Counted from the first letter of the stretch, positions 33,987-40,421 are shown. The stretch is DNA of 64,000 bases from Candidatus Borrarchaeum weybense (GCA_019057385.1 JAHQJS010000006.1:288001-352000), one strand, 5' to 3'. Made by a program: numbers and translations. The notes: a model not told the origin generated them from the sequence alone.

Positions 33987-36848
33987 TTATAATTCTAAGC
34001 TTTGGAAGCGTTCCTGAGTCAAAGCCTTGAATATGGCGACGTCTTTGATGGTTTGTGTTATTGATTCGCTAATGACTTGCGAACGTCCTCCTTGTTTTGT
34101 GATATGAAACACAGCGTCAGCTACACGCTCAAACTCAGAGTCATGAGTTACGACCAAAGTTTGTTTGGTGGGACGCGTCCGTTCGAATACCATGACAAGG
34201 TCTTTTCGGCGCTGTGTGTCAAGCATCGAGGTTGGTTCGTCTAAGATGAGAATATCTTGATTAGCTAACAAACGAGCAATTGCCATCCTGATAGAAATGC
34301 AAGCGATCACTTGTTCCCCTCCGCTCAACATGATTAGCGGTTCCGCTCGTCCTGAACGATGGATGAGCAAGTCGTAATCTTCCGTAATGGTAATTTTTTC
34401 GTACTCATCATTTCCTATTAGGTACGTGAAAATCTCCGTAGCATACTCAGATATTTCGTCCACATATTGCGTTCTAAGTATGGGAACAATTTCACGGCAG
34501 AACTGACGAACAATCGTAGCACTCTCGTATTTTAATTTCTCGGTATCTAATTTCGAGTCGATCCCTTTTAATTCTTTCATTTTCTCTTCGAGATCATGAA
34601 TACGATCCTCTTTTTCTGGAATCGATTTTTTGGCAAGGAAATCGATCTTTGTTTTTAATTCAGTTTGTTTGTGTTTTAAATTGTCTAATTCCTCTTCTAG
34701 TCGCTGGAATTCCGCGGAGTCAAACCTCTTTTGAAGGACATCTAATTGTTCTTTAGTTTTAGTATATTCGTCTTCGCATGCTTTATTCTCGCTACATTGC
34801 TTTTTTAAGTTTGAAATGTCAGATATGAGCAATATCAGTTTTTTGTATTGTTCTTCTTTCTCCTCTAATTGCTTTTTGTCCTCTGTGAGTTTTTTTTCGT
34901 CGAATTCCATTTCTAATTTCTTATATTGCTCCCGAAGGGTGTTGATTTCATTAGTACGGATTTTTATGGTTTCTTTGAGTTCAACTATCTGATGATACTC
35001 TTTCAGCATCTCTTTTTCAGAATTCAATCTCTCATACAACTGTTTAATTTTCTGATTGACCTCTTGAGTATTTATATCGCTCATTGGCAAATTTTCTAAA
35101 TTTTGCTGAGCGGTTTGCAATTCAGTTGTAAATTCTTCGATATTTGATTTTATAGACTCTATTTCTGAAACAATCAGGGAGAGTTTCGAAAACTTGCTTC
35201 TCTTGTTTTGCAAGTCTTCCATCACTTTTTTAGCGCTTTCTAGGGCATCTTCAATTAGTGCTTTCTTTTCTTCGATTTCTTGTTCCTTTATTTTAAGTTG
35301 TTCGATGAGATCATTTGATTCCTGAATAATTTTATTTTTGTGAGTACCTGTAACTTTTTGCTTACACTTTGGACAAGTTACGCCAGTTTTCAATTGTTCT
35401 ATCTCAAGTAATTCTTCATTAATTTCTTCAACTTTCTTTTGGACTTGATGTAGTTGATTACTTTCTTGTTCCCTTGTTGTCAAGAACTGTTCTATTTGCT
35501 GTTCAATCTTCTGTATTTCATTTTCAAAGTCAATTTCGTTAAGATTCTTGAAAATCATTTCCCAATTTTTTGATGATTTCGACGCCGCTTTTTCTTTTTT
35601 AGTGAGTTTTTTATTATTTTTTTGGATTTCCTTTGATAAATTATCTATTGTAGTTTTAAACTCAGTTCTACTGGTCTCGATTTCTTGAATTTCCTTTCTC
35701 AAGCTTTCAAGAGTAGCAATCTCTGATTCAATTGAATTACTCTCCCTTTCTAGAAAGTCTTCAATTTGTTCTTCTGAGATGGATTTTATTTCTGGTTTTT
35801 TTGAAACAAGATTTTCATGAGATTTAATCGATTTTTCAGTCGTTTTGTCAATATTTTTGCTCTCTTTCTCGATCTGTGCTCTCAGGTTTTTCAATTGAGA
35901 TTTTAGATCTTTTTGCTTCTCAATTTCTAACTTGATTTTTTCGGTAATTTCTTCAATAGTTGCTTTTTCAGAGTGAAATTGCGAAATTACATCTGCTAAA
36001 AAGTCGTCTTCAATAATCAGGGTGATATTCGTTAATTTTTCGATTTCTTGCTTGCTGTTTTCAATTTGATCCTTTATTCGGGATATATTCTCAAGTTGAG
36101 CGTCTTCTCTTGCAGTTAGTTCATTGATCAAGTCGTTGTCCTGTTTATACGATGAAAATTCTTCTTTTAAGTTTTTAATGATAGGTTTTATTATTTTTAA
36201 TTCTTCCTTATATGATTTCAATTCTTCTTTTAGATTTTTAAGATCCTCCTGCTCGTCGGGAAGTTTTTCAACATCACTAGCCCATTCATTCCTAATTTTT
36301 TCATACTCTTTGATACTAATTTCTGCCGCTTTTGTGATTTCACGAAGTTTTTCGAACAATTCTTGGAACGTTGCAAATCCTAGAAGTTTATCAAACAACC
36401 ATTTCCTCTTACTTGGCTGCTCCGAAGCAATCTGAGATATTTCCCCTTGAGGTATATATACAATGTTCCCGAATGCGTTAGCACTAACTCCAAGCAACTT
36501 TTCAATTTCTTGTGTGACAGTTTTTGACTTTTCGGCTACGATCTTGTTGGGATGACGATGAAGTGTGGCTTCAGAACCACTTCGCCTAATTTTCCTTCCC
36601 ACTAAATAACGTTTTCCGTCGACTGAGAAGGTTAGAGACAAGTCAGAAGATGTTTCCCCCATTCGGATCAAGAACTCTGCTTTCTTGTTCGGTACACTTC
36701 CAAATAAAGAGTACATGATAGCCTCAAAGATTGAGGTCTTTCCGGCACCGTTATCACCTATGATTATATTATGTCCTTCTAAAAAGTCAAATTCAGCATC
36801 CACATAGGTCTTGAAATTTTTCATAGACAACTTTTCAATCAATAGCAC
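33987..36848 (-). CDS. rad50: Rad50/SbcC SMC-like ATPase
   Basis: Walker A GDNGAGKT, Q-loop YIPQG, long coiled coil with CPKC zinc hook, LSGGE signature, LDEPT Walker B, VTHD. Confidence 0.92.
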   Translation of the reverse strand: MLLIEKLSMKNFKTYVDAEFDFLEGHNIIIGDNGAGKTSIFEAIMYSLFGSVPNKKAEFLIRMGETSSDLSLTFSVDGKRYLVGRKIRRSGSEATLHRHPNKIVAEKSKTVTQEIEKLLGVSANAFGNIVYIPQGEISQIASEQPSKRKWLFDKLLGFATFQELFEKLREITKAAEISIKEYEKIRNEWASDVEKLPDEQEDLKNLKEELKSYKEELKIIKPIIKNLKEEFSSYKQDNDLINELTAREDAQLENISRIKDQIENSKQEIEKLTNITLIIEDDFLADVISQFHSEKATIEEITEKIKLEIEKQKDLKSQLKNLRAQIEKESKNIDKTTEKSIKSHENLVSKKPEIKSISEEQIEDFLERESNSIESEIATLESLRKEIQEIETSRTEFKTTIDNLSKEIQKNNKKLTKKEKAASKSSKNWEMIFKNLNEIDFENEIQKIEQQIEQFLTTREQESNQLHQVQKKVEEINEELLEIEQLKTGVTCPKCKQKVTGTHKNKIIQESNDLIEQLKIKEQEIEEKKALIEDALESAKKVMEDLQNKRSKFSKLSLIVSEIESIKSNIEEFTTELQTAQQNLENLPMSDINTQEVNQKIKQLYERLNSEKEMLKEYHQIVELKETIKIRTNEINTLREQYKKLEMEFDEKKLTEDKKQLEEKEEQYKKLILLISDISNLKKQCSENKACEDEYTKTKEQLDVLQKRFDSAEFQRLEEELDNLKHKQTELKTKIDFLAKKSIPEKEDRIHDLEEKMKELKGIDSKLDTEKLKYESATIVRQFCREIVPILRTQYVDEISEYATEIFTYLIGNDEYEKITITEDYDLLIHRSGRAEPLIMLSGGEQVIACISIRMAIARLLANQDILILDEPTSMLDTQRRKDLVMVFERTRPTKQTLVVTHDSEFERVADAVFHITKQGGRSQVISESITQTIKDVAIFKALTQERFQSLEL

Positions 36849-36859
36849 ATCTTTCCCTC

Positions 36860-39884: not shown

Positions 39885-40044
39885 AATATTCTGATGTATA
39901 TTCTCTCTCTTCGACATCTCCTAACTCATCCTCCAGGAACTTGGTCGCATCAATGCATCCTTTCCCTTTTACTCCCTTAACTTTGATGTTCACATTGCCA
40001 TTCGGGTCTATCATTATTTCAAGTTCGGTTGTTTTTACACCCAT
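39841..40044 (-). CDS. DUF2997 family protein
   Basis: I..DG.V...V.G..G..C...T..LE..LG.V.....TSEYY pattern. Confidence 0.85.
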   Translation of the reverse strand: MGVKTTELEIMIDPNGNVNIKVKGVKGKGCIDATKFLEDELGDVEEREYTSEYYEEEESHTRTRVSY

Positions 40045-40421
40045 TGTCTTCTCACCACAGTTAACTTAATTTCATTATTTTCTGTTAATGTTTCGTTAGT
40101 GACTGAATATCCTTTTTTCTTTACCTCAGCTATGATTTTGTGGTAACTGTATCGTTGCGTTAGTTTTTGCAGAAACTCATTTCTATTTATCTTAATCCCA
40201 TACCAATCTGCAACGATTTCGATTTCTCCTGTTGCGCTTTTTCTCAATCCGATGTCATAACCTCGCGATGTAGTGATTTTAAGTTCAGCTTGAGTTTTTC
40301 TGCCACCATAACCTCTTGTTAGAACTTCTCCTTCTATAAAATTATAATTAAGATCCTTTAAAGACTTCTTTATTGCATCCATATCGGTTAGTTTTGTTTT
40401 AATGGTAGTAAAATGTGACAT
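40035..40421 (-). CDS. DUF1257 (Ycf35) family protein
   Basis: MSHFTTIKT, RGYGG, YDIG, VADW and QRY motifs. Confidence 0.88.
   Translation of the reverse strand: MSHFTTIKTKLTDMDAIKKSLKDLNYNFIEGEVLTRGYGGRKTQAELKITTSRGYDIGLRKSATGEIEIVADWYGIKINRNEFLQKLTQRYSYHKIIAEVKKKGYSVTNETLTENNEIKLTVVRRQWV

Follow-up and report, generated by a model that had tools for sequence, protein, structure and literature searches.

The stretch analysed here (the window, 64,000 nucleotides (nt) from Candidatus Borrarchaeum weybense, GCA_019057385.1, JAHQJS010000006.1:288001-352000) belongs to an Asgard archaeon whose genome (G000) comprises 4.18 Mb in 8 contigs and whose rps2 and idi share 90% clusters with proteins labelled Sifarchaeia, Promethearchaeota or Lokiarchaeota. 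Between positions 33987 and 40421 it carries six open reading frames (ORFs), all on the minus strand, which encode a DUF1257 protein, a DUF2997 protein, a small putative protein, a Ycf46-type AAA+ ATPase, Mre11 and Rad50 (Table 1), and which probably form a horizontally acquired operon for an accessory DNA-end-processing machine. A preliminary description of this DNA had listed six co-directional genes, the first four of them overlapping, with a 91-bp gap before mre11 and with neither HerA nor NurA beside the pair. All six ORFs were found where it had placed them, and the overlaps are present in the sequence: 10 nt between DUF1257 and DUF2997 and, varying with the start chosen, 44-77 nt between DUF2997 and the third ORF and 32-50 nt between the third ORF and the AAA+ gene. 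The gap is likewise present but measures 90 nt from the AAA+ stop to the mre11 start (105 nt should mre11 begin at the GTG at 38083), mre11 and rad50 are 11 nt apart, and searches with Pfam and NCBIfam show no HerA or NurA in 33837-40861. The block has rps2 on its upstream side and ipk, followed by a type-2 idi, on its downstream side; Rfam gives no match in 33500-41500, a tRNA-Leu being its sole match within the window.

Table 1. Features of the block and of its surroundings (positions counted from the first letter of the window; aa, amino acids).
Feature	Position	Strand	Evidence or remark
DUF1257 (Ycf35-family), 128 aa	40035-40421	-	Pfam PF06868, 83 bits
DUF2997, 67 aa	39841-40044	-	Pfam PF11211, 70 bits
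Small putative ORF, no family	39690-39884	-	64 aa from ATG 39884; 75 aa from 39917
Ycf46-type AAA+ ATPase, 510 aa	38189-39721 (alternative start 39739)	-	PF00004 + AAA_lid_3
Spacer between AAA+ and mre11, 90 nt	38099-38188	-	TATA-like TTTAATAT ~25 nt upstream of start
Mre11, 412 aa	36860-38098 (start possibly GTG 38083)	-	Metallophos; archaeal Mre11 models best in NCBIfam
Rad50, 953 aa, zinc hook	33987-36848	-	AAA_23/SMC_N; archaeal Rad50 models best in NCBIfam
AT-rich non-coding leader, presumed promoter region	40494-40861	-	Within the inserted segment; without notable ORF or Rfam match
Inserted segment, ~7.0 kb (7,025 bp)	33837-40861	.	blastn against three congeners
Flanking rps2	40876-41499		Pfam/NCBIfam
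Flanking ipk	33029-33817		Pfam/NCBIfam
Flanking idi2	31886-33001		Pfam/NCBIfam

Three genomes of the same genus have this site without the block. In blastn comparisons, contig C52 of G308 is collinear with window positions 28974-33836 and 40862-46236 at 89-92% nucleotide identity, with about 215 bp between the two parts; G307 is collinear on both sides at 91-95% identity, with about 515 bp at the site of the 7,025 bp in the window; and G305 is collinear on both sides at 77-83% identity, with about 226 bp in place of the cassette. The block is therefore the inserted unit that the preliminary description had taken it for, and, as far as the genus was sampled, no other species has the insertion. 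The same description had also placed the block in the position of mvk, and this did not hold: mvk, searched for elsewhere in the genome, lies at G000:C6:471018-471920 (about 147 kb from the block) and, because rps2 directly precedes ipk in the congeners, it was never displaced from this site. The borders of the cassette show no notable flanking direct or inverted repeats, no tRNA and no integrase, and base composition shows no anomaly. It is unlikely that the insertion is an assembly chimera, since the stretch is held by public metagenome contigs of several studies (DNA metagenomes only, from sediment, soil and mangrove). Additionally, the cassette is not confined to one assembly, because a metagenomic relative carries the AAA+ protein and Mre11 at 92% and 86% identity to the window proteins.

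Mre11 from the block has a calcineurin-like domain with five nuclease motifs (D-x-H, GDxF, GNHD, H and GHxH), which are kept with respect to the structures from P. furiosus and M. jannaschii (including PDB 4hd0) and are invariant across an alignment of 17 sequences; it scores 124 bits with the NCBIfam model Mre11_Sulfo, and its closest relatives beyond Asgard are SbcD proteins of Bacillota (E ~1e-18). Its gene neighbours rad50, an adjacency kept in all related loci. Rad50 has the split ABC head, the coiled coil and the central CxxC zinc hook expected of the family, with Walker A (GDNGAGKT) at residue 31, CPKC at 492, LSGGE at 842 and LILDE at 866; PRK02224 gives it 261 bits, the archaeal Rad50 models being the best ones in NCBIfam while staying below their equivalog cut-offs. 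Judged by their motifs, Mre11, Rad50 and the AAA+ protein all look active, every catalytic motif being intact.

A separate canonical locus, of the kind that the preliminary description had proposed to look for, exists in the same genome: at G000:C6:815000-834000 (L011), NurA, HerA, Mre11 and a zinc-hook Rad50 are encoded on one strand, and only there are herA and nurA found. In what follows, the Mre11 kind of this locus is called c-type and that of the window w-type, and counts refer to a sample of 400 genomes of the phylum (species representatives), in which the class of the window genome has few members and most related genomes are incomplete metagenome-assembled genomes. The c-type Mre11 is present in all four congeners, at 90-96% identity, and in 175 of the 400 genomes, and it is HerA-linked in 30 of the 30 loci examined; the w-type (E <= 1e-30) is found in 41 of the 400 and in none of the four congeners, one of which is 100% complete. 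The NurA-HerA-Mre11-Rad50 locus is thus the vertically inherited one, and the cassette does add a second Mre11-Rad50 pair to it, second in the sense of acquired, not of aberrant. On sequence grounds this second pair is in fact the more canonical archaeal one, with 124 against 42 bits for Mre11 and 261 against 134 bits for Rad50 on the archaeal models. These scores would favour the opposite assignment, in which the cell relies chiefly on the window pair for housekeeping and has the NurA-HerA-linked locus as a divergent accessory, an assignment that we regard as very improbable, given that the four congeners have the L011 type without the window type, that the L011 type is commoner in the phylum and always HerA-linked in the loci examined, and that the window pair sits in an insertion.

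The two kinds also meet elsewhere, as G014, one of the genomes with the fused block, has a c-type HerA-Mre11-Rad50 locus as well, and Hodarchaeota relatives have a third, more divergent HerA-Mre11-Rad50 type. Diverged HerA-Mre11-Rad50 types (L023-L051, L168-L192, L203, L204) are mostly mutually exclusive by family in Asgard, the two main types co-occurring in some genomes (e.g. G317, G336 and G386-G388), and there are at least two, probably three, deeply diverged operon types in Asgard genomes. At L011 itself, a gene for a 400-aa RRXRR-HNH endonuclease (9263-10465 of the locus) lies between c-type mre11 and rad50, with a truncated RRXRR ORF just downstream (5354-6082); in the four congeners c-type mre11 is directly followed by rad50, without this gene between them, and it looks like a selfish HNH insertion into a housekeeping repair operon.

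The association between the Ycf46-type genes and the nuclease pair is not private to the window. The order DUF1257-DUF2997-AAA+-Mre11-Rad50, for which a check in other genomes had been suggested, recurs in at least seven other distinct Asgard loci, among them G014 (L020, an uncultured archaeon contig), G060 (L071, Hodarchaeota YT5_056), G063 (L210), L014, L212 and L213, and several short contigs that pair AAA+ and Mre11 matches add to this conserved linkage. With this recurrence and with the NurA-HerA-linked locus of the same genome, two of the three conditions under which the preliminary description would have been refuted prove false. The flanks change from locus to locus and hold genes of everyday kinds, for metabolism, transport or topoisomerases. 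In the five relatives in which it was measured, the distance from the AAA+ gene to mre11 is 20-38 nt, shorter than the 90 nt of the window. Overall, the cassette occurs in 4 of the 400 species representatives and in one of the five genomes of the genus. An exhaustive profile search over 1.84 billion representatives placed the AAA+-linked Mre11 kind in only two 50%-identity clusters, and the next Mre11 relatives that were checked belong to NurA-HerA-Mre11-Rad50 loci or, in the case of a short contig, to a HerA-linked locus. A second, independent adjacency of this AAA+ family with an SMC-family gene may exist at L017 (JGI 3300010938, Ga0137716_10000968), where a close AAA+ homologue (62% identity) precedes genes for an uncharacterised 322-aa protein and a hinge-bearing SMC protein of 1201 aa.

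The origin of the linkage can be read from two phylogenies. In the Mre11 tree, which the preliminary description had also called for (46 sequences, LG+C20, rooted on the c-type), all six AAA+-linked Mre11 proteins group together with 100/99 support. Their clade falls inside the HerA-linked w-type Mre11 of Asgard, as part of a 98/95 group with unresolved branching; the sequences show that the AAA+-linked Mre11-Rad50 descends from a NurA-HerA-linked Asgard Mre11-Rad50. In the AAA+ tree (a quick search, unrooted, with a midpoint root only), the AAA+ proteins linked to Mre11-Rad50 and those of stand-alone Hodarchaeota trios (DUF1257, DUF2997 and AAA+) make up one clade among bacterial sequences, and both trees share the same branching order: the window, then G014, G063, and L014 with G060. 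A stand-alone Asgard operon (G076) has DUF1257-DUF2997-AAA+ directly followed by a gene for an NrdG-like radical S-adenosylmethionine (radical-SAM) protein, and in L014 and L020 these two genes, AAA+ and radical-SAM, immediately flank Mre11-Rad50. The simplest reading is one ancestral capture of mre11-rad50 into an Asgard Ycf46 operon, between the AAA+ and radical-SAM genes, after which the fused block moved as a unit among at least three Asgard families. A radical-SAM gene of this kind (Fer4_12) often adjoins Ycf46-type AAA+ genes in Asgard, Bacillota, Actinomycetota and Bacteroidota (L053, L061, L062, L211, L014, L020 and L138-L150), with one Planctomycetota locus in which it lies about 7 kb away, and no glycyl-radical enzyme was found among the annotated ORFs adjacent to these genes.

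A single capture leaves room for a reading without functional coupling, in which mre11-rad50 entered a Ycf46 operon once and has travelled with it since, the two parts working separately. The single origin of the association would fit this, as would the fact that both parts function apart in most genomes and the 90-nt spacer of the window with its TATA-like element. It has to contend, however, with a gene order and a 20-38 nt spacing that outlasted divergence down to 40-47% identity in Mre11 and about 34% in Rad50, as well as several relocations into unrelated flanks, with the congruence of the AAA+ and Mre11 trees, and with the loss of HerA-NurA at capture, which left the pair without its usual operon partners. 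Taken together, these observations make a mere passenger pair improbable in our judgement, although less so than the housekeeping assignment discussed above.

The AAA+ protein has Walker A (GVQGCGKS) and Walker B (LWIDE) motifs, with AAA and AAA_lid_3 domains on residues 274-464. The best sequence matches of this active domain in the PDB are to the D2 domain of p97/VCP (E ~1e-55). Residues 1-232 were modelled with a predicted local distance difference test score (pLDDT) of 87 and match AAA+ folds at probability 1.0, without a Walker A motif; because a Walker-less AAA+ fold precedes the active domain, the protein is read as a tandem of a degenerate D1 and an active D2. Its N-terminal domain has no sequence match to solved structures, and it matches a cyanobacterial 'ycf46' cluster of the Atlas structurally (TM 0.92). 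Furthermore, the protein is about 60% identical to thousands of bacterial homologues, named SpoVK/Ycf46/Vps4 family by JGI. It has the layout of Ycf46 proteins, which at about 500 aa place a family-specific N-terminal domain before one classical AAA domain with lid, and the DUF1257 and DUF2997 genes lie directly upstream.

Among the small proteins, DUF1257 starts at ATG 40421, because a near-invariant MSH is the N-terminus throughout the family (mostly MSHFT, with S2 invariant and M1 and H3 near-invariant), in agreement with the end coordinate first given for the gene. The family also has an invariant D72 followed by a near-invariant W73 (a D-W pair) and an invariant G58, a residue pattern more suggestive of a site for catalysis or metal binding than of a passive adaptor. 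The AlphaFold2 model (pLDDT 90) is a small alpha+beta domain, whose best VIA-align Z score (7.2, to a KA1/TBP-like arrangement) is within the range of common arrangements and not decisive, and DUF1257 has no sequence match to solved structures. Two R-G-Y motifs are present in the window's copy only, and a glycyl-radical relation, considered on account of these motifs and of the NrdG-like activase, was dropped as unsupported. The third ORF had been called DUF2997-like, a label that we do not retain: BLASTP between the two gives nothing, a DUF2997 profile built without the third ORF gives E = 0.96, and the alignment matches the two in no more than a single Cys and a short I-D-P-x-G-x-V motif. 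It has no Pfam (E 0.01), NCBIfam or PADLOC match and is absent from every other AAA+-Mre11-Rad50 locus.

The AAA+/DUF1257/DUF2997 association is present in Asgard, bacterial and one phage locus. Among 80 loci examined, 15-21 have DUF1257 and DUF2997 side by side, and other bacterial AAA+ neighbours are heterogeneous (Ig-like surface proteins, a transketolase, a core domain of extracellular contractile injection systems). In cyanobacteria and plastids the trio is near-universal and is regarded as a stress-linked housekeeping module; the cyanobacterial ycf46 operon is induced by severe stress, and the module is reported to interact with KaiC and to have a phenotype related to CO2, no biochemical role having been attributed to it (PMC13683863). 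Ycf46 operons of Firmicutes (L140, L145 and L147; Paenibacillus, Romboutsia) contain one or two proteins with a ComEA-like HHH_3 domain, some with GYF_2; Rhizobium phage vB_RleS_L338C (L220; L338C_050/052/053) carries the whole trio a few kb upstream of its replicative helicase gene; and Corndog-type mycobacteriophages (L219, Smooch gp98) carry the AAA+ gene alone, a few kb from Ku-like and ParB-nuclease genes. These three settings support a DNA-linked role for the trio. A full-length homologue occurs in 70 phage records.

Phage carriage and patchiness both bear on the possibility that the cassette is a defence against mobile elements, with Mre11-Rad50 sensing and degrading invading linear DNA ends and the trio acting as sensor, regulator or effector. 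Its patchy distribution, its spread across Asgard families against family grouping, its strain-level insertion and generic PADLOC matches (Rad50 to LmuB, 125 bits; AAA+ to IetA, 91 bits) are all of the kind that such a system would give. The PADLOC database (dated 2023) gives no system-level match, however, the matches being generic SMC-head and AAA similarities and the small proteins giving nothing significant. Moreover, five contexts were inspected and none showed mobility genes or the make-up of a defence island, the trio is itself phage-carried, and its housekeeping standing in cyanobacteria and plastids also speaks against defence. We therefore hold this explanation to be unlikely, while giving it more credit than the passenger pair.

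The reading that we prefer, with a probability of about 0.6, is that the six genes, acquired horizontally as an operon, code for an accessory machine that processes DNA ends. In this machine, Mre11-Rad50 would recognise and cut DNA ends, as the family does elsewhere, and the Ycf46 ATPase, presumably a hexameric, polypeptide-remodelling motor of the classical clade, would stand where HerA-NurA stood. DUF1257 and DUF2997 would be adaptors or regulators of the AAA+ protein acting on proteins at DNA ends, and the AAA+ protein might remove proteins that are trapped or bound to the ends, or free the Mre11-Rad50 clamp for reuse. The cell could use such a machine for repair in times of stress or for action against foreign linear DNA. 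A narrower proposal, that a p97-like Ycf46/Ycf35/DUF2997 machine replaced HerA-NurA as the dedicated partner of Mre11-Rad50 in a small Asgard clade, is more tentative, and we would sooner bet against it than for it.

Several observations weigh against the end-processing machine. The case for coupling the AAA+ module to Mre11-Rad50 is drawn wholly from gene order. Trios without adjacent Mre11-Rad50 are found in all 78 bacterial loci (none of which has an Mre11 or Rad50 gene beside its close AAA+ homologue) and in five Hodarchaeota loci; most organisms thus have a working trio with no Mre11-Rad50 attached, which places the pair outside its core function. In the window, the 90-nt spacer with its TATA-like box makes an internal promoter possible, so that mre11-rad50 may have one of its own. 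The radical-SAM gene is missing from the window, as it is from G063, a search of the window genome giving weak generic matches only. Fold searches with DUF1257 gave no functional clue, Foldseek returning nothing at E <= 0.001, and a complex prediction of the AAA+ N-domain, DUF1257 and DUF2997 with Mre11 scored 0.01, which is no answer either way.

What is new here is an Mre11-Rad50 with a candidate new dedicated partner module, both halves being already known; the linkage of the Ycf46 trio with Mre11-Rad50 has no mention in the literature searched, which included a 2026 NurA review and mostly did not extend to subscription papers. If the narrower proposal of a replaced HerA-NurA holds, the cassette would encode a DNA-end-processing complex of a new kind, and it would give the Ycf46 and Ycf35 proteins of cyanobacteria, plastids and phages their first biochemical context (protein-DNA assemblies at ends). 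For the plastid and cyanobacterial orphans among them, the conserved fusion already offers the hypothesis of an action at DNA ends or on DNA-bound proteins. Such a replacement would also mean that the Mre11-Rad50 core can exchange its motor partner, from an FtsK-type DNA translocase with a nuclease to a classical AAA+.

Among known systems, the nearest is the archaeal NurA-HerA-Mre11-Rad50 operon, with which the cassette shares the Mre11-Rad50 lineage and a ring ATPase gene directly upstream of mre11. It differs in lacking HerA (an FtsK-type DNA translocase) and NurA (a nuclease), in having instead a classical-clade AAA+ of the polypeptide-remodelling type and two small proteins, and in being accessory and laterally spread, in a genome that keeps a full NurA-HerA-Mre11-Rad50. 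With the Ycf46/Ycf35/DUF2997 module it has the same three families in common, at the AAA+ identity to bacterial members given above, but the small genes precede the AAA+ gene and mre11-rad50 follows it, a neighbour (Mre11-Rad50 or SbcCD) seen at none of the bacterial loci. Bacterial SbcCD has the same two-protein nuclease/ABC-ATPase architecture but is not known to have a dedicated AAA+ partner, and the models of SbcC and SbcD give the window proteins lower scores than the archaeal ones of Mre11 and Rad50 do. LmuB of Lamassu, DndD/PbeC, PtuA and GajA resemble the Rad50 of the cassette in their ABC head and coiled coil and share its patchy, mobile distribution; the cassette, however, has none of their partner effectors and no defence-island context, and it does include a genuine Mre11, complete in its motifs, and a zinc hook. 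Eukaryotic p97/Cdc48, finally, acts at DNA breaks and is reported to control Ku and MRE11 on chromatin. The AAA domain described here is nearest to p97/VCP D2 and likewise belongs to a tandem-AAA protein with a degenerate first domain, although the protein is of the bacterial Ycf46 family, not Cdc48, and has no ubiquitin-type adaptor. The parallel between this control and the role proposed for the cassette, the extraction of proteins at Mre11-processed ends, is one of analogy only, and it is this resemblance to p97 with MRN that makes the system attractive for biochemistry.

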